From: Planctomycetota bacterium | Lineage (GTDB): Bacteria; Planctomycetota; B15-G4; SIAN01 | Assembly (NCBI GenBank): GCA_009691715.1 | Contig: SIAN01000004.1 | Location: 13,101-77,100, forward strand | DNA length: 64,000 bases | Direction: 5' to 3' | The notes under the pieces: model-generated | Seen by the model: only the letters and a program-made list of their open reading frames with translations | The model's database searches: none | Told to the model about the DNA's origin: nothing | Position numbers and translations under genes: made by a program | Shown here: positions 4,285 through 31,486 of the stretch, one piece after another | How positions within the stretch are numbered: position 1 is the stretch's first letter | Layout of the letters: each line of letters opens with the position of its first letter

Positions 4285-5466
4285 TCAACGGCCCGCGGCC
4301 CGCGTGCGACCGCGAGCGCGCGCGACGATCCAGTCCCGCATCGCGGGCACCGTCTGGCGCTCGAACTCGGCGGAGAGGCGCAGTTCGAGGAACGTCGCGA
4401 ACAGCCCGTCGACGACATCGCACAACTCGAACAGCCAGCCGGCGCGCTGCTCGTCGCCGGCGCGCAGGTTCTCGTCGGTGATCTCCTCCGCCTCGGCCTC
4501 GATCTTGATCGACTCAAGGTCGAGGGTCGCACCACTCAACGAGACGTTGAAGCTCTTCTCACCGCGGGCGATCACCAGGCGCGCCTTCTGCGGCAGCTTT
4601 CCGGCAAGGAGGGCCGATCCCGCTTCCGCCGCGCGCGTCGGCGTCTCACCGCGCACGGTCACGCGCCCGCCACCCTCGCCGCCGCCGAGCTCGAGCAGCG
4701 AATCGAACGCGACGCCGACTTCGCCGAGGTCTTGCAGCTCGAACTTTCCGCCCGCCGCTTCACACTGGTGCCAGAGCCAGAGCAGGAACTCGGCGCCAAG
4801 GAACGCCGGCGAGTCGGGGACCGCGACCACGCCGCCATCGATGAAGATTGCTGGGCTGACTTCGGCGATCTTTTTCGCAGCCCCTTTCGAGGCGCCCGCC
4901 AGCTGCACGGCCAGCGCCGCGGTCGGCAACGGCTCCGGTGAAGTCCCAAAAGTCTCGTTGAACAACGCACGGAAGGCGACGTTGGCGCCATCGGCGGTGG
5001 TGTTGAGCAGCAGCCGGCCGCGCTCCGGCTCGAAGAACATCGCGTAGAGCGCGGTCGCCGGGACGACGCGGGCCATCAGCTCGCTCTCGAGCTTTTCGAC
5101 GATCTCGCGCCGACGGGCCGGTGCGATCCGCTCGCCCGCCTCGCGCCGCTCGCCCGCCTCCGCCTCCATGCGCCGCACGCGAAGCGCGCCCGCCGGGAGC
5201 TTCTTCTGGTCGATGCGGACCGCCGCGCCGAGGACCTTCCCGAGCCAGTGATCCTCGGCCACGAAGCCGCGCGGCGTGGTGCCATCGGGGCGGCACCAGC
5301 CGACCGAACTCACCTCGCTACCGGCCGCGTCGATCGAGCGGAAGCGGTTCGACTGCAGCCGCTTCTCGAGCGCTTCGCCGTCGTCGCGTAGTCGGCGCGC
5401 ACCGCCTTCGAGCGCCTTCGAGTCGAGCAGGTAGCGGCGGAACGAGCCGGAAGCGCGGACACGCAT
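4285..5466 (-). CDS. RdgC-like recombination-associated protein
   Basis: The reading begins at the internal ATG MRVRASGSFRRY. At about 390 aa, its size and conserved segments (GWCRPDG, acidic C-terminus) resemble the RdgC family. The upstream part of the listed ORF is low complexity. Confidence 0.5.
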   Translation of the reverse strand: MRVRASGSFRRYLLDSKALEGGARRLRDDGEALEKRLQSNRFRSIDAAGSEVSSVGWCRPDGTTPRGFVAEDHWLGKVLGAAVRIDQKKLPAGALRVRRMEAEAGERREAGERIAPARRREIVEKLESELMARVVPATALYAMFFEPERGRLLLNTTADGANVAFRALFNETFGTSPEPLPTAALAVQLAGASKGAAKKIAEVSPAIFIDGGVVAVPDSPAFLGAEFLLWLWHQCEAAGGKFELQDLGEVGVAFDSLLELGGGEGGGRVTVRGETPTRAAEAGSALLAGKLPQKARLVIARGEKSFNVSLSGATLDLESIKIEAEAEEITDENLRAGDEQRAGWLFELCDVVDGLFATFLELRLSAEFERQTVPAMRDWIVARARGRTRAAGR

Positions 5467-5750
5467 GGGGCAGGGTGCCGATGGAGCAGCGGAAGAGCAG
5501 CGCTGCAGTGCGGGCCGAGGCGCGACCGCCATCCGGCGCATCTCGGCCCGCATGCAGCGGCGCGGAGTTGTAGCGAGGACGCGGACGGTGAAAAGAGGGT
5601 CGCGGAATTCGGCCGCAATCGCGCGACGACCGCGAGCGGTTCGATGCGCGCGTTGGTCAACACTTGTCCACAGCTTCGGCAACGCGGCGCGAGGCTCGCG
5701 CGGCGCGCCGCGCTTGCAACGGCGCCGCGCCCTGCTCTAGAAACGGCGCC

Positions 5751-13463: not shown

Positions 13464-13667
13464 TCAGGAGATGTAGCCGAGCCCGCGCAGCTTCTCGCGC
13501 ATCTTCTCGGGGTCCTCGGTCCCGCCGGTGTCCATCGATGCCAGCTCGCGCTCGAGGATGTGGTTCACGAACTCGTCGAGCGAGCTGTAGCCCGCCGCCT
13601 CGGCGAACTTCTTCAGTTTCTCGAACACGTCCTTCTCGAGCTTGATCTTGTTGCCGCCGAACATGTC
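13464..13667 (-). CDS. Ribbon-helix-helix (CopG-like) small DNA-binding protein
   Basis: The 67-aa sequence MFGGNKIKLEKDVFEKLKKFAEAAGYSSLDEFVNHILEREL follows the RHH beta-alpha-alpha pattern. The C-terminus ...KLRGLGYIS is shared with the paralog at 20329..20589. Confidence 0.5.
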   Translation of the reverse strand, partial: DMFGGNKIKLEKDVFEKLKKFAEAAGYSSLDEFVNHILERELASMDTGGTEDPEKMREKLRGLGYIS

Positions 13668-13753: not shown

Positions 13754-15685
13754 TCAGTAGAGGCTCTTGCCGCGCATGTCGGCCGTCGGCTTGACGCTGA
13801 AGTGATCGAGCAGGGTCGCCGTCACGTCGTAGAGGCACGGTTCAGTCGGCGACAGCTTGCGGCTCGACAAGAAGACGCCAGGGACGACTTCGGGCGCCAT
13901 CAAGTGGTTGCCGCTCCAGCGCAGTTTGTTGTCCTCGACGATCGGATCCTTGGGCTGCACCTGACCGAGCGCGGCGGTGTCGGACGCGCCGTATCCGCGG
14001 TCGTATCCGACCACGAGATCGGGTGCATGCTCGAGCTGTCCGCCGTGATAGGCCTCCTCGCGGAGGTCGACCCGGCGCACGACCTTCGCGCCGGTCTTCG
14101 GATCAACCAGCGCGAGCAGCTTGCCGCGGATCTCCGTGAGCAGCGCTAGGCGCTCCCCCTGAACGACGGAGCCTTCCTTCTCCCGCCCCTTCAGGTTCAC
14201 GTAGATGCCGTTGAAGCCCACGGCATAGGCACGGGTGGTGGCGCGGTCGATGCCGCCCTTCTCTGCGAGGGAGTAGACGCCTCGTGGACTCGCGGCCGCC
14301 TCCGCTGTGACCTGGAGATACCCCTCCTGCAACAGCCAGTTATTGAGGTTCACCTTGCGCAGGAACGGTGAGAAGCCGTGATCGGAGAGCACGACCAGCT
14401 CGGTCTCCATTCCGATCTTCTCGCGCAGGTGGCCGAGCGCCTGGTCCATCAGGACATAGGAGTCCTCGATCGACTTCGAGTACTTCGTCGCCAAGACCTC
14501 GTCGCGCGCCGGATGGCCGGGCTCGATGTGGCGCCACATCATGTGGCTGCGCAGATCGATGGTGGAGAAATAGAAGAACAGCAGCCCGCGGTCGAAGCGC
14601 TGCACCGCGTAGTCGAGCATCTTCATCCGCTCGTGATGGATGTCGTCGCAGTTCGAGATGAACTCGCGGTCGTCGAGCGTCCCTTCATCGAGCGCCTTGG
14701 TCTCTTCGGCCAGACCCTGGGTGTAGAACGGCCCGATCGCCTCGGCGAGATCGATCACCGCGGCGTCGTCCGGCGTCGAGATCGACATGCATGGGTTGCG
14801 CGGATCGATGTTGACCGGTGAGCAGTAGAGGCGCAGCTCCGGGTGCACCTGCTGCAGATAGAATTTCACCATGCCGTTCATCGATTCGGTGTAGAGCGGC
14901 AGGAAGGTCTCGAGCTCGAACGAGCAGGCGAGCCACTCGCTCCACTGCCCTTCTTCGAGCAGGCACGACTCGCCGTCCGCGATCTCGATCTCGACGATCG
15001 GCTGGTCGGGATCGATGAAGACCGAGAACGCACACTCGCTCTGCGGCACGACGTTCTTGCCCTCCGGCGGCGAAGCATGCGGGCTCGCCGGGCCGAAGAG
15101 CGTGGCGTCGACGCGCCCCTTCAGGTTCCTCACCTTGCTCCACTTGCCGCCGTGGATCTTGTCGAAGTTGTCCGGCACGTCGGTCGTGTAGTAGACGTAC
15201 ATGCCGTCGATGCCGCCCTGCAGGTCGGGCGTGCCCATGTCGGAAAGCGTCAACTGCTCGCTCGGCTGGATCGGGTAGGCCGCCGGCATCCGGTAGACCT
15301 CGCACTTCACGCCTGTCTCGCCGAGCAGATCCCAGAACGGCCGGCGCTCCTCCATCGCTCCCGACGAGCTGACCGGCAGGTAGGTCTGCGGATCGCGGTG
15401 CAGGAAGTCGAACACGCCGTGGCCGCCCGGATCCATGCCGGTGATGAAGTTCGACCAGGCGACCGGCGACTGCGGCGGGTTGCTGGTGCAAAGCGGCACG
15501 AAGGTGCCGGCATCCGCCAACGCCTTGAAGTTCGGCATCCGGCCGGCGTCCATGTACTCGCGCAGCAGGTTCGGATCCATCCCGTCGATGCCGACCACGA
15601 CCAGCTTTCTGCCGTCCTGTGCGACCGTTTCGCTGCACGAAACGAACGAGAGCGCAGCGGTCGCGGCCGTCGCAGCCGCCAGCAT
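13754..15685 (-). CDS. Alkaline-phosphatase-superfamily phosphodiesterase (type I phosphodiesterase/nucleotide pyrophosphatase-like), paralog 1
   Basis: It has VVGIDGMDP, TSNPPQSPVAWS and SDHGF motifs, and a lipoprotein-like N-terminus (MLAAATAATAALSFVSC). It is paralogous to 15747..17930 and 21664..24168. Confidence 0.7.
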   Translation of the reverse strand: MLAAATAATAALSFVSCSETVAQDGRKLVVVGIDGMDPNLLREYMDAGRMPNFKALADAGTFVPLCTSNPPQSPVAWSNFITGMDPGGHGVFDFLHRDPQTYLPVSSSGAMEERRPFWDLLGETGVKCEVYRMPAAYPIQPSEQLTLSDMGTPDLQGGIDGMYVYYTTDVPDNFDKIHGGKWSKVRNLKGRVDATLFGPASPHASPPEGKNVVPQSECAFSVFIDPDQPIVEIEIADGESCLLEEGQWSEWLACSFELETFLPLYTESMNGMVKFYLQQVHPELRLYCSPVNIDPRNPCMSISTPDDAAVIDLAEAIGPFYTQGLAEETKALDEGTLDDREFISNCDDIHHERMKMLDYAVQRFDRGLLFFYFSTIDLRSHMMWRHIEPGHPARDEVLATKYSKSIEDSYVLMDQALGHLREKIGMETELVVLSDHGFSPFLRKVNLNNWLLQEGYLQVTAEAAASPRGVYSLAEKGGIDRATTRAYAVGFNGIYVNLKGREKEGSVVQGERLALLTEIRGKLLALVDPKTGAKVVRRVDLREEAYHGGQLEHAPDLVVGYDRGYGASDTAALGQVQPKDPIVEDNKLRWSGNHLMAPEVVPGVFLSSRKLSPTEPCLYDVTATLLDHFSVKPTADMRGKSLY

Positions 15686-15746
15686 CGCCAGTCGAAGATC
15701 TCGCGAGTTCACCGATCCGTCTCCGATCACCGTTCCGTCTCCAATT

Positions 15747-17930
15747 TCAGCGGGCGGCAGGAGCCGGAACACGTTTCCGCGGCGCCGCGGCAGCAGGCGC
15801 ACCACCCGGCGGCGAACTGCGCTCGCCGAAGAGGCGCTGCCCTTGCATGTAGGTCGGCGGCTTAATCCCAAACAAGTCGAGCACGGTCGGCGCGAGGTCG
15901 AGGATGTTCGGCGTCGCGGTGTTGATCTTGCGGTTGCAGAAGAAGACGCCCGGCACGATGCGCGGGTCCATGCAGTGATCGCCGCTCCAGCTCTTGGTGT
16001 TGTCGCTGAAGACGTTCTCGCTGGTGCAGCCGACCGCGCAGTCCCACGAGTGGCGATAGCCCGCCTCGTAGCCGATCAACAGGTCGGGCGCCTCGTAGCT
16101 ATAGGGCCCGGCGAAGTTGGCCTGCGTGTCGAACACCTCGCGGATCGCGCGAATGCCGTCTCGCTTGCTGTCGAGAAGGTGGCGCAGCTTGTCGGCGATC
16201 TCGTTCTTCAGGCGGTGGAGCTCGTCGCCGTCATCGACGATGCCCTTCACCTCGCGGCCCTTGCGATTGATGAAGACGCCAGTGAGGCCCATCGAGAACG
16301 CCTTGGTCTTGCTCCAGTCGACGCCTTCGAACCAGTCACCGCCGGTTCGCTTGCCGTCCTTCAAGACGAGATAGCCCTCGTCACGCAGCCACGCATTCAA
16401 GTTGACGCCGCGCTGGAACTGCTTGAAGCCGTGGTCCGACATCACCACGAACACCGTGTTCTTGTCGGCGCACTTCGCGCGCGCGCGTCCGACGAACTCG
16501 TCGCACCAGCGGTAGACGTCCTCGACCGCGTTCTTGTGCAGCACCGTGTCCTTGCCGACGTTCGCCGGGTGCTTCGGGTCGAGGTAGCGGAAGAACATGT
16601 GCTGGATGCGGTCGGTCGTGTCGAAGACCGTCGTGATGAAGCCGTTCTTGGTCTTCGCCACGGCGTCCCAGAACATCGCCTCGCGTTCCTGTCCGTAAAG
16701 GTACGCCTGCTTCAGGAACGCCGCTTCGTCGATGCGCCGTTCGTTCAGCGCCCAGGTGTCCTCGGCGAGGCCAAGCGTGCCGAACGGGCCGATGATCTTG
16801 GCGAGGTAGGCCGAATAGACCTGCGGCTCGCTGATCGGGAGGATCGGATTGGCCGGATCGATGTGGACCGGCGTGACGTAGAGCTCGACCTCGGGATCAG
16901 CCTTCTGCAGATAGAAGCGGGCGATGCCGTTCATGCCCGGAAAATCGACGCGCAGCCACGGCGAGTAGTCGCCGAGCTTGAGCTCGACCGTCTCGCGCCC
17001 GATCTTGAGCTTCGCGCCCTTGCGATCCGCGGCGAGCGTCAGCTTGAACGGGCAGGAGAGCTTCTGACTGCCGATCGACGGACCTTCGATCGCTGCCTCG
17101 ATCACGTCGCCGACGCGGCGCACCTCGGTCTCGGTGCCGCCGGCGTTTTCGGCACCCATCCCGGCCGTCTCGTCCTGGATGCGGCCGCTCAACTTCGTGG
17201 TGAAGAACGAAAAGCTGCCCTGCGAGCCCTTCAAGTCGGGCACACACATGCCGGAGAGCAGCACGCCGTTCTTGAACTTCTCCGGCGGGAAGGTGATCGG
17301 CACGCGCTGGATCGCGCTGCTCACCCAGTTGTCGCCGAGGATCTTCCAGAACGGCTGGCTGCGTCGCAGCATGCGATAGAACGACTTGTGGAAGGTCTTC
17401 TTGAAGATGCCGAAGCCGAAGGTCGTCTCGCTCTCCGCGATCTTGGCCGACGACAGGACCGGCATGTAGGTGCAGACGTCGCGCGTGATGAAATCGAAGA
17501 TCCCATGCTTGCCGGGATCGACGCCGGTCATGAAGCTCGACCACGCGACCGGCGACATCGACGGCGTCGCCGTCGTCAGCGGCAGGAAGATCCCGTCGTC
17601 GGCGAGACGCTTCAGGTTCGGCAGCTTGCCCTCGGCCATGAAGCGGTTCGCGAGCTCCGGATCCATGCCGTCCATGCCGACGATCACGACCCGCTTCGCC
17701 TTCTGCCGCGAGCGCCGGTCCGCCGTCTTGAACCAGCGGATCGTCATGCGCACCGGCAGGATCAAGAGCGCGCCGAACGCCGCCAGCAGCGCGAACGCCA
17801 CGACGAACACGGCACCGGCGGCCGCAATGCCCGCGCCCGGCCCGATGTAGCCGTAGGCCGTAGTCGGCCCGAAGCAGACCACCGCGAACAGGGTGGCAGC
17901 GATCAGTCGGAGCTTCAGCGAACGGGCCAT
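15747..17930 (-). CDS. Alkaline-phosphatase-superfamily phosphodiesterase, paralog 2 (N-terminal TM anchor)
   Basis: It has VIVGMDGMDP, TTATPSMSPVAWS and SDHGF motifs. The N-terminus has a signal/TM segment containing AYGYIGPGAGI. The start was verified at MARSLKL. Confidence 0.7.
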   Translation of the reverse strand: MARSLKLRLIAATLFAVVCFGPTTAYGYIGPGAGIAAAGAVFVVAFALLAAFGALLILPVRMTIRWFKTADRRSRQKAKRVVIVGMDGMDPELANRFMAEGKLPNLKRLADDGIFLPLTTATPSMSPVAWSSFMTGVDPGKHGIFDFITRDVCTYMPVLSSAKIAESETTFGFGIFKKTFHKSFYRMLRRSQPFWKILGDNWVSSAIQRVPITFPPEKFKNGVLLSGMCVPDLKGSQGSFSFFTTKLSGRIQDETAGMGAENAGGTETEVRRVGDVIEAAIEGPSIGSQKLSCPFKLTLAADRKGAKLKIGRETVELKLGDYSPWLRVDFPGMNGIARFYLQKADPEVELYVTPVHIDPANPILPISEPQVYSAYLAKIIGPFGTLGLAEDTWALNERRIDEAAFLKQAYLYGQEREAMFWDAVAKTKNGFITTVFDTTDRIQHMFFRYLDPKHPANVGKDTVLHKNAVEDVYRWCDEFVGRARAKCADKNTVFVVMSDHGFKQFQRGVNLNAWLRDEGYLVLKDGKRTGGDWFEGVDWSKTKAFSMGLTGVFINRKGREVKGIVDDGDELHRLKNEIADKLRHLLDSKRDGIRAIREVFDTQANFAGPYSYEAPDLLIGYEAGYRHSWDCAVGCTSENVFSDNTKSWSGDHCMDPRIVPGVFFCNRKINTATPNILDLAPTVLDLFGIKPPTYMQGQRLFGERSSPPGGAPAAAAPRKRVPAPAAR

Positions 17931-18086
17931 GCATTCCTCGGCGGGCCTTCGATGCCAACGAAACAAGCGGCGGCGCCGGCCGGCGCGAGCCGCAGGAACG
18001 TGGAAGCAGCGATCGTCGGAACAGTGAACGTCAGATTCAACCCTCGGGCTTGAGCCCCCTGCGGCCGGTGGCGAAGCGACACCGCG

Positions 18087-18495: not shown

Positions 18496-19101
18496 TCAGA
18501 TGAAGCCCTTGGCCTTCAGCGAGCGCATCGCCGCGGCCTCGGCGGCCTGATCGACGCCGTCGCCGCCGCCCTGCTTGATCAGGCCGCGCGCCTCGAGCGC
18601 TGCCAGCACGCGCTCGTAGCTCACGTCCTGGCTTTCGCTCGCGGTGTTGCACTTCACTTCGGGGCTCGTCGGCGGCTCGTACGGATCGTCGACGCCGGTG
18701 AAATTCTTGATCTGGCCGGCGCGCGCCTTCTTGTACAGGCCCTTCACGTCGCGCGCTTCGAGCGTGTCGAGGTCGCACTCGGTGTAGACCTCGAAGAAGC
18801 GCCCGATCTTCTGGCGCTGCTCGTCGCGCGTGTCGCGGTAGGGCGAGATCGCGGCGGTGATCGCCACGACGCCGTTGCGCGTCAGCAACTTCGCGACGTA
18901 GCCGATGCGGCGGATGTTGGTGTCGCGGTCTTCCTTGCTGAAGCCGAGACCCTTGCTGATCGTCGTGCGGAACTCGTCGCCGTCGAGCAGTTCGACCTTC
19001 ATGCCGCGCTCGAGCAGCTCATTCTTGATGCGTTCCGCGAGCGTGGACTTGCCCGAGCCCGAAAGCCCGGTGAACCAGAGCGTGAAACCTTCCATGTCCA
19101 T
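18496..19101 (-). CDS. cysC: Adenylylsulfate (APS) kinase
   Basis: It contains [22 protein letters not shown] (P-loop) and is a canonical 201-aa APS kinase. It lies 8 nt downstream of sat. Confidence 0.9.
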
Positions 19102-19109
19102 CGTTCCTT

Positions 19110-20264
19110 TCACTTGGCCTTGAGGGCGTTGATGAGAATCTGGGCGATCTCGGGGCGGGTGAACTCGACCGGCGGGATGGTGCCGGCACGCAGCATGTCG
19201 CGCACCTGCGTACCGGAGAGGTTGATGCGCTCTTCCGGCGTGGCCGGGCTCGACTTGGTCGACGCCATGCCGTTGGTGCGCTTGCACCAGAACGAGTTCT
19301 CGAACTTGAGCAGGTTGATCCCGATCTCGCCGGGCGAGTACTCGTCGAAGATCTTCTGCGCGTCGTAGCTGCCGTAGTAACTGCCGACGCCGGCATGGTC
19401 GCGACCGACCAAGAAGTGGCTGACGCCGTAGTTCTGGCGGCAGATCGCGTGCAGGACCGCTTCGCTCGGCCCGCCGTAGCGCATCGCCTGCGGATAGACG
19501 ACCAGCGCCGTGCGCTCCTTCGGGTAGTAGCTGGCCAGAAGCGCCTCGTAGCACTGCATGCGGACATCGGCCGGGACGTCGTCGCTCTTGGTCTCGCCCA
19601 TCAGCGGGTGGAGCATCAAGCCGTCGACGATCTCGAGCGCGACCTTGGTCAGGTACTCGTGCGCACGGTGGATCGGGTTGCGCGTCTGGAACGCGGCGAC
19701 CGTCTTCCAGCCCTTCTGCTTGAACAGCACGCGCGTCTCGACCGGGTCGAGGCGGCGGTTGTTGTACTTGTCGTACTTGAGGCGATTGACGACCGAGATC
19801 CGGCCACCGAGGTAGGTGTCGCCGATCGAATCGAGGTAGCCGACGCCCGGGTGCGCCTTGTCATCGGTGCGCAGGACCTTCCGCGCTTCGTCGCCCTTGT
19901 CCATCTTCCACTTCGCCGCGAGGTGGAGCACGGCGAGAAGTTGCCCGTCCTGCGTCTCGAGCGCGACGTCACTGCCTTCCTTGAACTGACCCGCGTCGTC
20001 ACCCGGCTTGACCGAAAGGACGATCGGCACCGTCCACGGCAGGCCGTTCTTCAAGCGGCGCGTTGCAAGCACGGCCGCGTAGTCGGCCTGCTCCATGAAG
20101 CCCTCGAGCGGGCTCATGGCACCGACGGCGATCATGTCGACGTCGGCCATTTCGCGCGCGTTCAACACGACCTTGTGGAGCTTCGGCGCCAGGCCGAGGA
20201 GGCGGTCGCGCTCGCCACCTTCCACCACGCGATTCACCAGCCGTCCACCATGCGGTGCGATCAT
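19110..20264 (-). CDS. sat: Sulfate adenylyltransferase (ATP sulfurylase)
   Basis: It contains [11 protein letters not shown] (HxxH motif) and the GRDHAG motif, with length and fold consistent with single-chain Sat. Confidence 0.9.
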
Positions 20265-20328
20265 CGATGTCCTCTTCGCTGTCCTGGTTGCTGCCTTGGG
20301 TCACGAAACGCCGCGGGATCGCGGCGCG

Positions 20329-20589
20329 TCACAGGTATCCGAGATTCTTCAGCTTCTGCTTCACGGCCGCGAGGTCGCTCGCGTTGAAGTCCTCGGCCGC
20401 CTCGATCGCGCTCGCCGACGCGCCAGCGGCCGCTGCGGCTGCGCCCTTCAGCTCCGCTTCGCCGAGCAGGTCGCGCAGGACGAACACAATGAAGTCGGTC
20501 GGCGACGAGAAGCCTGAGTTTTCGATCACCAGCTGGACCTTGCGGTAGAGCGGGCGCGGGATTTTGACCGTGACCTTGCTCTCTCGCAT
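20329..20589 (-). CDS. Ribbon-helix-helix (CopG-like) small DNA-binding protein
   Basis: The 86-aa sequence MRESKVTVKIPRPLYRKVQLVIENSGFSSPTDFIVFVLRDLL is a clear RHH. The C-terminus ...KLKNLGYL is shared with the paralog. It is the first gene of the RHH-sat-cysC arrangement. Confidence 0.55.
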   Translation of the reverse strand: MRESKVTVKIPRPLYRKVQLVIENSGFSSPTDFIVFVLRDLLGEAELKGAAAAAAGASASAIEAAEDFNASDLAAVKQKLKNLGYL

Positions 20590-20644
20590 CGGACCCTCAC
20601 GTGGGATTGCGGGCATCTCGACACACGCTGGGGTGCGGGAGGAA

Positions 20645-20688
20645 CGCACTCCAATCGCACTCCAATCGCACTCCAATCGCACTCCAAT
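20645..20688. repeat. Perfect tandem direct repeat, 4 x 11 bp (CGCACTCCAAT)
   Basis: Read directly from the sequence: cgcactccaat cgcactccaat cgcactccaat cgcactccaat. It lies in the divergent intergenic region 56 bp upstream of the RHH gene start and 175 bp upstream of the lipoprotein gene. Confidence 0.9.
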
Positions 20689-20861
20689 AAGGCGCCATCT
20701 AGATACCGCCCGTTTTCTTGATGTCAAGCCGTCGGTCGCCCGCTGAGCCGCCGCCATGAACTGAGGTACGGTTCCCCGCCGCTGCCGGCGTTGACGGGTG
20801 CGATGGGTCGCCGTCGAACGCCCGGTACCCTCGCGCCCCCGAATCCCCCAGGAGCCTGCCC

Positions 20862-21437
20862 GTGATGCGTAGGTCGATCGCTGTCTCCCTCCTCCTTGCG
20901 TTTGCTGGGTGCGGTGACAAACCAGAATCGGGAGGCAACACTGCCTCCGCCCCTACCGCCGGTAAATCCGCTGCGCAGCTCCTGAGCGACGCCGAAACTG
21001 CGGAGCAGGCGCAGGATTGGAAGGCGATGCTTGCCTGCGCCGACGGCGCGCTTGCCGACGCCAAGGCGACCGGCGAAGAGAAGCAGCAGGCGTGGCTGAT
21101 CAAGATCGCCGCGACCGCCCACACGAACGGCGGCGATGCCGCGAAGGGTGCGATCACGGCAATGAGCGCGTCGAGCGACGTTCCGTCGGCGTCGAAGCTG
21201 GTGAGCCTTGCGACCGATCTCGTCGAAGCGGACCTCGCCGCCGTCGCCGTTGACGTTGTGGCGGCGGCTGACGCGAAGTACGGCAGCGACCCGGACGCGA
21301 AGAAACACCTCAAGAAGGTCGCCAAGATGTGCAAGGCGAAGCTCGAGGAGAGCGGCGACGCCGGCGCGCTCGCGCAACTGCAGGCCCTCGGCTACCTGAG
21401 CGCGTCGGACGACGAAGAAGAGATCGAGGACAGTTGA
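20862..21437 (+). CDS. Lipoprotein, Ala-rich helical
   Basis: It has a signal peptide with lipobox LLAFAGC. The C-terminus ALAQLQALGYLSASDDEEEIEDS contains the same LGYL motif as the two RHH proteins. Confidence 0.55.
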   Translation: MMRRSIAVSLLLAFAGCGDKPESGGNTASAPTAGKSAAQLLSDAETAEQAQDWKAMLACADGALADAKATGEEKQQAWLIKIAATAHTNGGDAAKGAITAMSASSDVPSASKLVSLATDLVEADLAAVAVDVVAAADAKYGSDPDAKKHLKKVAKMCKAKLEESGDAGALAQLQALGYLSASDDEEEIEDS

Positions 21438-21663: not shown

Positions 21664-24168
21664 CTACTCCGGCGCCACCAGCGACTCGCGGTTCGCGCGA
21701 CCGCCGACGTGCGCCTTCGCCTTCGCTTCGAGCCCGGCGAGCGGGATCACGTGGCCGTCCATGTCGTCCGGTACCGGCACGCCGTGGATCGCAAGAATCG
21801 TCGCCGCGAGGTCCTGGAGGTGTGGCGCCGCGCCGGCCGCGACCTTCTTGTTGCTGAAGAAGATGCCACGCACGAGGTACGGGTGCACCGAAGTGTGGTC
21901 GCCCGACCAGCGGTTCTTGTTCGGGAAGACGATCGCTTCCTTGCTGCGATCGCCCATCGCCGTGCCCCAACCGACGCGGTAGCCGAAGTTGAATCCGACC
22001 TGAATGTCGGCCGCGCCTTCGGTGCATCGGCCCTTCGCGTCGCGCAGGTCGGTGGCGAACGGTCCGGCGAGGTAGTCGCCGCGCTTCCACGCGCCCTTGA
22101 ACACCTGACGATCGTTGGACGTGGTCTCGTTGGGATTCCGGTAAGCCAGCATCTTCGCGATCATCTGGTCGCAGACGGCGTCGTAGTCCGCAGCGTCGAC
22201 GCTTCCGTTCGGCTCACGGCCCTTCAAGTTGACGTAGATGTTCCCGATCCCGACCGAGTAGGCCTTGGTCTTTTCCCAATCGACGTACATCAGGAACTGC
22301 TTGTTCGTCGTCGGCTTGCCGTCCGGCTCCTTGCGCAGCGTCATGAAGCCCTGGTCGATCAGCCAGGCGTTCAGCTCGACCTCTTCGCGGAACGGGCTGA
22401 AGCCGTGGTCAGAGCAGACCATCAGCGTGCAGTCGCCGAGGCTTCCTGACTCGATGCGCTGCATGACGATCCCGATGGTCTTGTCGACCTCCGCGTAGAT
22501 CGCCGGGATCGCGTCCTTGGCCAAGATCGTCTGCGGGCCGAAGCGGATGGTCTTGTTGGCCTCTTCGGCCTTCCACTGCGGGTGCTTCTCATCGAAGAAG
22601 CGATACATCATGTGGCAGACGCGATCGGTCTCGCCGAAGACCTGGAACAGCGTGGTCCAGTCGTTCTTGTCGAGCTGCGCCTCGAGCATCTTGCGGCGCC
22701 ACTGGATCGTGTCCCAGATCGCCGACATGAACGACAGATCACCGATCTCATCGTCCTTGAGCGCGTGCGTCTGGCACGACCAGCCGATGGTGTCGAAGTA
22801 GCCGACGTCCTTCACCAGCTCGGCGCCGAACGCGACCGGCGAAGTGACCGGCATGTTGGGCGGCATGCCATCGGTCGCGACCGTGATCGCCGGCAAATAG
22901 AACTTCACGTCCTCGGCGTCGGGATTGCACTGCGATACGTGCAGGTGAGCGGTCGCCTTCATCGCGAAGGCATTCTCGATCTCGAACGTGACCGGGATGT
23001 AGGGCGCCCACTCGCCCTCGGCCAATGTCACTTCGCGCCCAGCCAGCGCGAACTTGATCGTCTTGTTGGCCTTGTCCACCCAACCAACGAGCGGGACGGA
23101 AGCGTTGCCCTTCTCCCCTTCCCACTTCTTCTTGTCGTTCTTGGCGGTGTTCAATTCCTTGGTCAGCGTCTGGTGCTCCGCCGTTCCCGGCTCGACGGCC
23201 TTCCACTTGTCCTCGATCTCCTTCACCTTGCGCGCCCACTTCTGCGCCTCGACGAAGTTCTCGGGCCCGGAGAGCTTGGTCTCGAAGTAGCCGATTTTGT
23301 TGCCGTCGGCGCACTTCGAGCAGCCCTTGGTGAACGTGAAGCTCTTGTTCTTGCACTTCGGGCAGATCGTCCTGAACTTCATCACCTGCCCGCCGTTCCC
23401 GGTCGGGCGCGGGAAGTCCCACTCGCTGTTGGTGTAGACGAGGTACGTGCCCGGTCCGCCGCGCACGTCGGGAACCGACAGTCCGGCGAGGAGCTTCGTG
23501 TTCGGGCCGGCGGCCGCCGGGTAATTGCACGCCACCTGCAGAACGCGTGACGACAGGTTCGCCGCGTCGAGCAGGTCCCAAAAGTTCTTGACCGCGAGGT
23601 CGTTCTGGTGCGACGGCATCGTGAAGCCGTCTTTCCACGGCAGGTCCGCTTCGCGCGAGTAGCCGATGGTCGGGATCACGCTGCCGATCAACTTCGGCTG
23701 CTTTTGGTCGTCCATGATCTCGGACCATCGGAACGTGCGGCGGATGAAGCCGAAGATGTTGGTCTTGCCGGGATTCTGGCCGCTGTTGACCGACGCCCAC
23801 GCGACCGGCGACTCGGCCGGGTTGGCGGAGCCGAGCGGCAGGAACGATCCCTGCTCCATCAGCTTCTTCGCCCATGGCATCCGCCCTTCGGCGATGAACT
23901 GCTCGGCGAGATGGTGCGACGCGCCGTCGAAGCCGATCATCACGACCCGCGGTGCGGCGACCGCTGTCGCTTTCGCTGCCGGCGCCGTCACTGCCGTCGG
24001 CACCGCCGCGTTCGCCGGCGCGGGATCCCCGGACAGCGCCGTCACTGGCGCCGCGGAGAACGGCGCGGCCGCGAGCGGTAGGGCGTTCTGTGGCCAGCAC
24101 GCCACCGCCGCGCTCGCCAGCGCCACCGTCGCCAGCAGTCCACCCACGAACCAGTGCATCGCTCGCAT
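21664..24168 (-). CDS. Alkaline-phosphatase-superfamily phosphodiesterase, paralog 3 with zinc-ribbon insertion
   Basis: It has VVMIGFDGASHH, GSANPAESPVAWAS and CSDHGFSPF motifs. An inserted C4 segment (ICPKCKNKSFTFTKGCSKCADG) is absent from paralogs 1 and 2. It has an N-terminal TM anchor, and a GGAGA SD precedes the start at M47. Confidence 0.7.
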   Translation of the reverse strand: MRAMHWFVGGLLATVALASAAVACWPQNALPLAAAPFSAAPVTALSGDPAPANAAVPTAVTAPAAKATAVAAPRVVMIGFDGASHHLAEQFIAEGRMPWAKKLMEQGSFLPLGSANPAESPVAWASVNSGQNPGKTNIFGFIRRTFRWSEIMDDQKQPKLIGSVIPTIGYSREADLPWKDGFTMPSHQNDLAVKNFWDLLDAANLSSRVLQVACNYPAAAGPNTKLLAGLSVPDVRGGPGTYLVYTNSEWDFPRPTGNGGQVMKFRTICPKCKNKSFTFTKGCSKCADGNKIGYFETKLSGPENFVEAQKWARKVKEIEDKWKAVEPGTAEHQTLTKELNTAKNDKKKWEGEKGNASVPLVGWVDKANKTIKFALAGREVTLAEGEWAPYIPVTFEIENAFAMKATAHLHVSQCNPDAEDVKFYLPAITVATDGMPPNMPVTSPVAFGAELVKDVGYFDTIGWSCQTHALKDDEIGDLSFMSAIWDTIQWRRKMLEAQLDKNDWTTLFQVFGETDRVCHMMYRFFDEKHPQWKAEEANKTIRFGPQTILAKDAIPAIYAEVDKTIGIVMQRIESGSLGDCTLMVCSDHGFSPFREEVELNAWLIDQGFMTLRKEPDGKPTTNKQFLMYVDWEKTKAYSVGIGNIYVNLKGREPNGSVDAADYDAVCDQMIAKMLAYRNPNETTSNDRQVFKGAWKRGDYLAGPFATDLRDAKGRCTEGAADIQVGFNFGYRVGWGTAMGDRSKEAIVFPNKNRWSGDHTSVHPYLVRGIFFSNKKVAAGAAPHLQDLAATILAIHGVPVPDDMDGHVIPLAGLEAKAKAHVGGRANRESLVAPE

Positions 24169-24396
24169 GCGCAGTCTCTCCAGGCGCGCCCGAGATGAAG
24201 CGGCGCAATGGGTTGCTCTTTCGGGCTTGAGGCGGCGCAGAGTAAAGCGACCCGTGTCCGGACGATCGCGCGCTCCTGCGTCGATTCGGCACAAGGGGCG
24301 CGCCACGCTGCGCCGCCGGCCCCGTGGCGCAATGGGACGAAGCTCGGGGACCGATGTTTGCGGTGGGCCGCCGCTTTCCTCCCGGAGGCTCGATTG

Positions 24397-30215: not shown

Positions 30216-31486
30216 CACGCGCCTCCCGCGACTCGTCGCACCGGCAATGCCCGGTCGCGCCACGCCGCCGCGAATGCGGCGAGCGTCAGCAGCAGTCCAA
30301 ACCCTTCGGCCACAAGCAACGCCATCGCCGCACCGGCGACCCCAGACTGCCGCGTCCACCACGGGATCAGCGCCGCCAACGCGAGCGTGCCCGCCACCGA
30401 GCAGACGAGCTCGAGCCGGCTGCGACCGAACGCCAACAGCGTCATGCGCGCGTGGCCGCGGCAGGCCAGCAGGGGCAGCACCGCGACCAGCAGTCGCAGG
30501 CAGCTCGCGCTCTCCGCGTCGCAGAGCTCGGGCCGGAACAGGAGCCGCAGCAAGCCGTCGGCGTTCGCCGCGACGCAGAGCGCCAGCGCCAGCGTGCCGC
30601 CGACCGCGATCGCGGTCGACCGCAGCAGCAGCGGCTTCAGGATCGCGCGCGGACCGCGGGCAGCGCGCGAAAGACCGGGAAAGAGATTGGTGAAGTACAT
30701 GGTGAGAACCGCCTGCAGCACCATCATCACGCGGTGCGCGACGGCATATCGGCCCACCGCCTCCTTCGGAACGAGGTGCCAGAGCAGCAGCGTCGCCAGG
30801 AACATGCGCAGCGCCCAGAGCAGCTGCGACACTCCCATCGGCGCCGCCTCGCGCAGCATGGCCGTCGCTCCAGGCGCAGGACCGATCGCAGATCGGCCGC
30901 CGATGCGCCCGCGGCGCCACGCCCACTGCGCCAGCAGCGCCGCACCGCCGACCGCCACCACTTCGAGCCACGGCAATCGAGCGAGGTCGCCGCTGCTGCG
31001 GACGAGCGCGGCGGTGAGCAGCAGGAAGAGCCCCTGGCGCAGGACGCCGGGCGCCGCGATCCAGTGCATCGCACCGCGTCCCTGGAACGCCCACGGCACC
31101 AGCCACGGCAGCAGAAGCAGGGAGGCGGCGTAGACCGGGAGCAACGTGCCAAGCTCCGGCCCCAGCCAGCCAGCGGCGCGCGCCAACCATGCGAGCGCAA
31201 CGAGCAGCACGGCCGCGCCGCACTGCAGACGCAGCACCGTCGGCGCGAGGCGCTGCTCCGCCGTCGGATCGCGCGCCACCTCGCGCGCCGCCAGCAGCGG
31301 AAAGCCGAGCTCGACGAAGAGCGCGGCGAACATCATGGCCGACAGCGACACCTCGACAGCGGCGTAGTCCGCAGGCGCGAGCCGGTTCGAGAGCAGCCAG
31401 ATCGCCACGAACGACAGCAGCCGCTGCGCTCCCTCGCCGGTCAGCAGCACGAAGAGCCCGCGCATCGATGCGAAGCGGGGTTGCAT
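30215..31486 (-). CDS. Polysaccharide flippase (Wzx/MOP-family polysaccharide biosynthesis protein)
   Basis: It has about 12 predicted TM helices. The layout is typical of oligosaccharide-unit flippases. Confidence 0.6.
   Translation of the reverse strand: MQPRFASMRGLFVLLTGEGAQRLLSFVAIWLLSNRLAPADYAAVEVSLSAMMFAALFVELGFPLLAAREVARDPTAEQRLAPTVLRLQCGAAVLLVALAWLARAAGWLGPELGTLLPVYAASLLLLPWLVPWAFQGRGAMHWIAAPGVLRQGLFLLLTAALVRSSGDLARLPWLEVVAVGGAALLAQWAWRRGRIGGRSAIGPAPGATAMLREAAPMGVSQLLWALRMFLATLLLWHLVPKEAVGRYAVAHRVMMVLQAVLTMYFTNLFPGLSRAARGPRAILKPLLLRSTAIAVGGTLALALCVAANADGLLRLLFRPELCDAESASCLRLLVAVLPLLACRGHARMTLLAFGRSRLELVCSVAGTLALAALIPWWTRQSGVAGAAMALLVAEGFGLLLTLAAFAAAWRDRALPVRRVAGGA

Follow-up and report, generated by a model that had tools for sequence, protein, structure and literature searches.

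The window analysed here, a stretch of 64,000 nucleotides from a Planctomycetota bacterium, carries between positions 20,645 and 20,688 four identical tandem copies of an 11-bp unit, upstream of a gene for an 86-aa protein resembling the ribbon-helix-helix (RHH) repressors and of the genes sat and cysC for the synthesis of 3'-phosphoadenosine 5'-phosphosulfate (PAPS). The array is very probably a protein-binding cis-regulatory DNA site. The reading that we favour, with a probability of roughly 0.7, is that the adjacent RHH-like protein would bind the array and repress its own operon. Across the related loci the units were found to be conserved, helically phased, independent of orientation, associated with the predicted promoter and linked exclusively to this gene. 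An autoregulatory RHH operator for sulfate activation had already been proposed in a first-pass annotation of this DNA, and the proposal, though it remains a prediction from sequence, now draws support from conservation in 71 loci, from gene linkage and from the position of the array at the predicted promoter.

The array and its units are located as follows.

20645..20688, minus strand: predicted operator array of four identical 11-bp units, head to tail
20688-20678, 20677-20667, 20666-20656 and 20655-20645, minus strand: the four units of the array, each ATTGGAGTGCG

The sequence at 20645-20688 consists of exactly four exact copies of CGCACTCCAAT, read as ATTGGAGTGCG on the gene strand. Tandem Repeats Finder describes it by a period of 11, 4.0 copies, 100% matches and 0 indels, and its score of 88 is the highest among 85 rows reported for the window, the runner-up having 69. 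When up to one mismatch is allowed and both strands are searched, the 11-mer CGCACTCCAAT occurs within the 64-kb window only at the four positions of the array, and an exact repeat of 44 bp is far outside chance expectation. The array lies 56-99 bp upstream of the ATG of the 86-aa gene (20589, minus strand), and a gap of 174 bp separates it from the start of a divergent open reading frame (ORF) at 20862. The perfect four-fold repetition, its highly non-random character and its distances to the 86-aa gene and to the divergent lipoprotein gene had all been pointed out in the first-pass annotation and are borne out by these data, the non-random character also by the conservation of the unit in related loci. 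A contig assembled from short reads of the same organism (Logan contig SRR8561391_386760; L001, 1-30) stops inside the array after 2.7 units; the array is thus an assembly breakpoint, and this sample gives no reading of the copy number.

Orthologous loci were collected by exact protein look-up and by a metagenome scan (80 loci), and a position weight matrix (PWM) was derived from the upstream regions (250 bp each, 17.75 kb in all) of 71 non-redundant loci, which have regulators with identities down to ~57% and different sat types. The unit has the consensus ATnGGAGTGYn with the core GGAGTG. At least one unit is present in 71/71 upstream regions and at least two in 69/71, the number per region ranging from 1 to 7 with a mode of 3-4; for example, three degenerate 11-bp repeats occupy the same place in L002 (TTGGAGTGCGA TCGGAGTGCAA CTGGAGTGCAT) and in L010 (TGAGAGTGCGA TCGGAGTGCGA TTGGAGTGCGA). 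Each unit of the window reaches 17.9 of the 18.2 bits attainable with the PWM and is thus a near-maximal match to the consensus. With the unit centre placed at the seventh base, neighbours are exactly 11 bp apart in 157 of 190 pairs and a multiple of 11 apart in 169 of 190, whatever their orientation; among neighbours of the same orientation, the distance is 11 bp in 118 of 133. This strict phasing agrees with the earlier proposal that the period corresponds to about one helical turn. The same PWM describes the 163 units that point toward the gene and the 98 that point away from it (37% inverted). Inverted pairs overlap at the AT dinucleotide to give the junction CACTCCnATnGGAGTR, found in 38 loci, and the clade of the window has direct units only.

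As phased clusters, the units are confined to the upstream regions. About 250 of them are contained in 17.75 kb of upstream DNA, as compared with 89 isolated PWM matches in 292 kb of flanking DNA of the related loci, where the match rate is at or below that of shuffled sequence. No 11-bp-phased clusters of strong units were found in these 292 kb, and two close pairs in the flanks score low and are taken as chance occurrences. Outside the array, the 64-kb window has only single PWM sites at chance level, such as the one at 30828 within a coding region. As regards the search for further targets recommended in the first-pass annotation, the array is not a generic repeat in this DNA, and no second target emerged from the window and the 292 kb of flanks. 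Right after the fourth unit, at 20627-20644 on the minus strand, the sequence TTCCTCC is followed by CGCACCCC, an imperfect copy of the unit core in inverted orientation that lies below the PWM threshold; at the RNA level, this copy and the last unit could pair (7/8 pairs), and the fold of the leader is ordinary.

In the clade of the window, a promoter can be proposed immediately upstream of the array.

20722..20727, minus strand: predicted -35 element TTGACA, the TTGAC of which is shared without exception by 14 aligned upstream regions from the clade of the window
20700..20705, minus strand: predicted -10 element TATCTA, 16 nt after the -35 element, of which 'TA' is invariant in the same alignment

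Throughout these 14 regions the invariant TA stands 16-17 nt after TTGACR, and the units start 11-15 nt past the TA. The first unit of the window (20688) is 11 nt downstream of the predicted -10 element, and the array would span approximately +5 to +48 relative to the predicted start. A different layout is seen in the other clades, where the first forward unit past the inverted/direct junction is GGAGTA in 33 of 38 loci (for instance, L037, L048, L059 and L074); of 185 other units, only 10 have an A at that core position. Joined to the AT of the next unit, GGAGTA creates the sequence TAYNAT (TACGAT, TATGAT, TACAAT etc.; TAnnAT), which resembles a -10 element, lies inside the array and is always oriented toward the gene. 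The array is thus predicted to abut or overlap the promoter of the regulator's own operon.

The 86-aa protein shares 100% identity with a protein from a Planctomycetes/Planctomycetota metagenome-assembled genome (MAG) that is named 'CopG family transcriptional regulator' by NCBI, and its homologues at E<=1e-3 number 1423, several of them named 'Arc/MetJ-type RHH' by JGI. It is laid out as an N-terminal beta-alpha-alpha domain (residues 1-46), an Ala-rich low-complexity linker of very variable length and a C-terminal tail. In an alignment of 30 homologues, both the N-terminal domain (...KVTVKIPRPLYRK..SGFSSPTDFIVFVLRDLLGE) and the C-terminal tail (...DLxxVKxKLKNLGYL) proved invariant; the N-terminal beta-strand is invariant across the homologues, as is the DNA core. 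Searches with the 86-aa protein against Pfam and NCBIfam returned nothing at E<=0.01. Among the 30 homologues, 23 match PF17723 (RHH_8) at E<1, the best at 9.4e-4, and homologue P0004 has a precomputed PF17723 match. The family profile aligns with the RHH domain of NikR (PDB 2bj1) at E=0.54 over residues 5-81 in the expected register, and alignment by hhalign to Arc gave E=0.026 and the correct structural register, with VTVKIPRP paired with FNLRWPRE. In the AlphaFold 2 (AF2) model, the N-terminus is extended (1-11), two helices span 12-25 and 30-51 and the turn is SGFSSPT, with block means of the predicted local distance difference test (pLDDT) of ~79-85 over residues 11-40; superposition by Foldseek on NikR of H. 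pylori yields a root-mean-square deviation of 1.1-1.4 A over 40-44 columns. These sub-threshold sequence and fold matches suggest that the 86-aa protein is likely RHH-like. Two further candidate relationships were discarded: kinship with CopG by hhalign, where the alignment of the tail only is meaningless, and a spurious match to a phage tail-terminator in a single-sequence PDB search of the 86-aa protein.

Several observations weigh against an operator bound by this RHH-like protein at its own promoter. A consensus promoter and terminator scan of 20200-21000 called nothing; the scanner missed the predicted promoter because the -10 element TATCTA is weak, and given this null result the promoter proposal rests on conservation. 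The clades with TAYNAT have no TTGACA-like -35 element at the right distance, and an inverted unit (CTCCnA) stands there. The 86-aa protein itself scores 14.8 bits with PF17723 RHH_8 against a cut-off of 25.4, its AF2 model has a mean pLDDT of only 62, and the best Foldseek matches of the model, mostly RHH proteins (NikR, ParD, PrpA, Reg576 and VapB), all have E>1, as is expected for so small a domain. Of the earlier identification as an RHH protein, what stands is a consistent set of weak profile and fold matches (NikR, Arc, PF17723); the curated threshold for the family is not reached. On the DNA side, the array goes with the operon in its entirety rather than with the regulator gene in particular, so another factor could bind. 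The unit is non-palindromic, whereas many RHH dimers favour pseudo-symmetric half-sites. Finally, since the beta-strand and the DNA core are both invariant, there is no protein-DNA co-variation to exploit.

The occurrence of the unit was also surveyed with the pattern GGAGTN3ATNGGAGTN3ATNGGAGT (three phased units) over 185,579 species, one genome each. Among the 120 matches listed, an RHH homologue is encoded within ~250 bp in at least 18 loci, mostly in Planctomycetota MAGs with the rest unclassified, and most of these 18 listed loci also have a sat and/or cysC match downstream. The pairing of unit and regulator is restricted to Planctomycetota as far as seen. About 100 of the 120 matches listed are unrelated exact 11-bp tandem repeats, mainly in Bacteroidota and also in other phyla; the pattern thus gathers generic 11-bp microsatellites as well and is too loose to define a regulon.

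Some of the other matches deserve a brief description. GGAGTnnnATn tandem repeats occur in unrelated genomes, for example GGAGTATCATA, GGAGTTCAATG and GGAGTAGTATT among the matches listed, and a single MAG, CAMNLA01, has GGAGTAGTATT in arrays of 12 or more copies on many of its contigs. The GGAGTnnnATn repeats in L093-L212 look like genome-specific 11-bp satellite families. Three loci were considered as a second operator and found unconvincing: L104 (Planctomycetota) has no RHH gene nearby, L197 has a mobile or defence-like context, and L211 is located upstream of a PstS-like gene. In L211, which is from an unclassified MAG, three phased GGAGT units at 1831-1857 follow a CACTCC and precede the PstS-like ORF (1896-2897), after which comes a PstC-like gene; this site may be of the pho-box type, and proteins other than those of the RHH class also have sites with 11-bp direct repeats. 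GGAGT-type 11-bp repeats with a closely similar tail are shared by L197 (5372-5440, Planctomycetaceae), L171 (~5570-5640, Pseudomonadota) and L112 (~5350-5420, Gemmatimonadota), the tail being GGAGTTCATGGGTYCRAGCCTCCA in L197 and L171 and GGAGTTCATGAGTCGGACCCTCC in L112, with no Rfam match. The neighbours of the L197 repeats are Fic/RhuM-like and Schlafen/AlbA_2-like, which suggests a mobile or defence context.

The four copies in the window are more uniform than the units of its relatives. Neighbouring units in the related loci agree at the three unconstrained positions with frequencies of 0.28, 0.49 and 0.29, against 0.30, 0.51 and 0.32 expected; this chance-level agreement indicates that the units are old and that the core has been kept by selection rather than by recent copying. 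In one relative, five population variants have three unchanged units, and the flanking intergenic bases vary. The nearest relatives (L010, L021 and L119) have three diverged units, of which the promoter-distal one is ATTGGAGTGCG, and the units of the window are identical at all 11 positions, unlike neighbouring units in related loci. Because the four identical units match the promoter-distal unit of the relatives, they point to a recent event over an ancestral three-unit operator. By this comparison, the perfect four-fold array appears to be the product of recent slippage or conversion (expansion or homogenisation) of the promoter-distal unit, superimposed on an ancient operator of three units. 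The perfect array is lineage-specific, and other clades mix inverted and direct units.

Slippage could be taken further and the array regarded as a neutral 11-bp microsatellite, that is, a variable number tandem repeat produced by replication slippage and devoid of function. The identity of the four units also at the three unconstrained positions indicates recent copying, exact 11-bp arrays are common in unrelated genomes, as in the ~100 listed matches mentioned above, and the short-read contig of the same organism ends in the array. However, core, phasing and position are kept in 71 diverged loci, in which neighbouring units vary at unconstrained positions and never in the core. Conservation refutes neutrality as a full explanation, to which we assign a negligible likelihood; slippage accounts only for the step from three to four copies and for their homogeneity. 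A function at the RNA level is also quite improbable. In this scenario the units would act in the 5' leader, with GGAG/GGA serving as decoy Shine-Dalgarno or CsrA-type sites, or with inverted copies forming stems: each unit contains GGAG, the four units would be transcribed from the predicted promoter (~+5 to +48), and CACUCC could pair with GGAGUG in other clades. Yet there is no Rfam match at E<=1, the leader of the window folds no better than its shuffles (z = -1.15), and the direct units of the window's clade allow no hairpin. The degenerate positions of inverted pairs are identical in 7/38, 23/38 and 14/38 cases against expected fractions of 0.30, 0.51 and 0.32, revealing no compensation, and the inverted copies retain the full motif plus flanks, which fits recognition of double-stranded DNA. 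Moreover, if TAYNAT is the -10 element, the inverted units are upstream of the start and outside the RNA.

A protein other than the 86-aa regulator, either a response regulator of the OmpR/PhoB type or the RHH paralogue encoded at 13464-13664, might bind the units, which we consider unlikely; the 86-aa protein would in that case have some other role. A passage in PMC2275107 presents 11-nt direct repeats as a hallmark of PhoP/PhoB sites, such repeats being typical of OmpR/PhoB-type regulators; the pattern match in L211 adjoins a PstS-like gene, the RHH paralogue has the same C-terminal tail and is part of the same gene string, and the linkage is to the operon as a whole. On the other hand, 98 of 261 units are inverted and have a fixed palindromic junction, unlike the head-to-tail sites of winged-helix proteins, and the units in the clade of the window are downstream of the predicted -10 element and not in place of the -35 element. 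The conserved cluster has no response-regulator gene, which leaves unlinked regulators as possible binders. In the stretch of the cluster inspected for every locus, no predicted DNA-binding gene other than the RHH-like one is always beside the array.

The genes that surround the array are listed below.

20329..20589, minus strand: gene for the 86-aa RHH-like regulator, a translated ORF with its ATG at 20589
20594..20598, minus strand: Shine-Dalgarno-like GAGGG, 4 nt before the regulator ATG, read from the sequence and also kept in L010, L021 and L119
19110..20264, minus strand: sat (sulfate adenylyltransferase), second gene of the operon (PF01747, E=1e-89; PF14306, E=5e-49; NF003166, E=3.9e-153)
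18496..19101, minus strand: cysC (adenosine 5'-phosphosulfate (APS) kinase), overlapping the sat stop (PF01583, E=7.5e-62; NF002059, E=3.1e-78)
20862..21437, plus strand: divergent lipoprotein-like gene with a signal peptide and the lipobox-like LLAFAGC, sharing a 272-bp intergenic region with the regulator
13464-13664, minus strand: second RHH-like paralogue of 66 aa, MFGGNKIKLEKDVFEKLKKFAEAAGYSSLDEFVNHILEREL...KLRGLGYIS, ~90 bp downstream of the third Phosphodiest gene and on the same strand as sat-cysC

The array had been described as heading an RHH-sat-cysC operon, and both enzymes are confirmed by Pfam and NCBIfam, downstream and on the same strand. In all related loci for which more than ~1 kb of downstream sequence is available, the genes follow the order RHH - sat - cysC, including loci whose Sat shares only ~33% identity with that of the window. 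The related loci contain the regulator, sat, sometimes a sulfatase-like gene, cysC and usually then a gene of the alkaline phosphatase superfamily. Three PF01663 Phosphodiest proteins of 705-880 aa are encoded around the PAPS-synthesis genes of the window (13754-15871, 15747-17966 and 21664-24306, all on the minus strand), and distant clades have a 318-aa sulfatase-like gene between sat and cysC and a PF00884 sulfatase upstream (L062, 5560-6516 and 1591-3039). This conserved synteny with alkaline-phosphatase-superfamily genes suggests that the pathway concerns sulfate esters and is not simply one of cysteine assimilation. No match was found for the divergent lipoprotein-like protein in Pfam and NCBIfam; most related loci, in every clade, have a divergent gene whose product shows a signal peptide, a lipobox and the C-terminal sequence ...LKGLGY[VL]GDD, and this gene may be co-regulated by the same predicted operator. 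The 66-aa paralogue shares 24% identity with the 86-aa protein (pairwise E=8e-6), has weak RHH_4 and Arc matches and the same tail, and no GGAGTG units were found upstream of its gene.

In the proposed mechanism, the operator of the RHH-like protein would control transcription of the regulator-sat-cysC operon and possibly that of the divergent lipoprotein gene too. Each 11-bp unit would dock one RHH dimer, the two-stranded beta-ribbon of which would enter the major groove, with K5, T7 and K9 of the invariant strand KVTVKIP as predicted base contacts. With units one helical turn apart, the dimers would be placed on one face of the DNA, making cooperative binding possible, and the orientation of a unit would be irrelevant, as it is for omega heptads and ParG ACTC boxes. 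In both promoter arrangements, RNA polymerase would be kept off the coated operator or prevented from escaping, and the result would be negative autoregulation of PAPS synthesis, to be relieved by a signal, possibly via the invariant C-terminal tail. Four proteins of the gene string share a C-terminal peptide with the pattern h-x-x-[KR]-L-[KR]-x-[LK]-G-[YF]-[LIV].

20329-20373, minus strand: shared C-terminal peptide of the regulator, ...KLKNLGYL
18496-18540, minus strand: shared C-terminal peptide of CysC, ...RSLKAKGFI
13464-13510, minus strand: shared C-terminal peptide of the paralogue, ...KLRGLGYIS
21378-21400, plus strand: shared C-terminal peptide of the lipoprotein, ...LQALGYLSASDDEEE

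In CysC, this peptide ends a C-terminal extension of 25 aa beyond the kinase domain. Across the related loci (L010-L092), it is invariant in the regulator homologues, limited to the window's clade in CysC and present in the lipoprotein of nearly all clades. It is a long shot that the peptide is a shared docking motif, by which CysC or Sat would capture the repressor tail or compete for it in a trigger-enzyme feedback on PAPS synthesis through a short linear motif; if this were true, the regulator would do more than simply repress itself, and the enzymes would, through their own state, determine operator occupancy and with it PAPS synthesis.

Knowledge of transcriptional control in Planctomycetota is scant, and our literature search on this regulator, on RHH_8/PF17723 and on PAPS or sat-cysC regulation in this phylum found nothing relevant. 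The comparative analysis defines a phylum-wide pair of regulator and candidate operator with a precise unit, an 11-bp register, a predicted promoter layout and predicted contact residues. The natural series of operators, with 1-7 units that are direct or mixed and a -10 element outside or inside the array, is useful for understanding how RHH proteins read iterated sites, and Planctomycetes genetics could gain a compact regulatory part from the array.

Autorepression by RHH proteins at iterated operators is textbook knowledge, and the present regulator/operator pair most likely represents an uncharacterised case of it. Arc and Mnt of phage P22 and CopG of pMV158 bind as two or more RHH dimers in successive major grooves on one face of the DNA, ~11 bp from centre to centre, and repress their own genes over the promoter. 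Their operators are single pseudo-palindromes of 13-21 bp, unlike the open-ended arrays of 2-7 units described here, and the sequence similarity is marginal. The RHH domain of NikR is the best profile and fold match to the N-terminal domain of the 86-aa protein, which has only the linker and a helical tail of ~15 aa in contrast to the C-terminal ACT-like, nickel-binding tetramerisation domain and the two dyad half-sites of NikR. MetJ of E. coli, an RHH protein with a sulfur regulon and S-adenosylmethionine as co-repressor, binds cooperatively to 2-5 tandem repeats over the promoters of many operons, including that of its own gene, the repeats (metboxes) being 8-bp palindromes AGACGTCT. The array resembles this system in its tandem short repeats at a predicted sulfur-metabolism promoter that would also be the regulator's own; it differs in its non-palindromic 11-bp unit and in the single promoter detected, and we found no sequence relationship of the 86-aa protein to MetJ.

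By analogy of operator type, the closest kin would be the iterated operators of omega and ParG. The omega dimer, an RHH protein of inc18 plasmids (pSM19035), binds asymmetrically to non-palindromic repeats, at least two of them contiguous and in direct or inverted orientation, and its arrays overlap promoters including its own. Unlike the contiguous 7-bp heptads of omega, which wind round the helix, the units described here have an 11-bp period and keep to one face, and the DNA sequence, the protein family and the role are different. ParG, the RHH protein of plasmid TP228, autorepresses parFG by binding one dimer per 5'-ACTC-3' box, with boxes in direct or inverted orientation and AT-rich spacers (PMC3130281). 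Like the ParG OF operator and the parH centromere, the arrays described here consist of short boxes in both orientations, and ACTC is the centre of the CACTCC/GGAGTG core (followed by nATn), a resemblance that may be coincidental. They differ from the ParG sites in their period (11 bp, as a 6-bp core plus a 5-bp spacer, versus 8 bp, as 4+4) and in the number of units (2-7 versus 8-20). The predicted regulator differs from ParG in its chromosomal metabolic locus (sat-cysC) instead of plasmid partition, in its C-terminal tail where ParG has a flexible N-terminal one, and in having no ParA partner.

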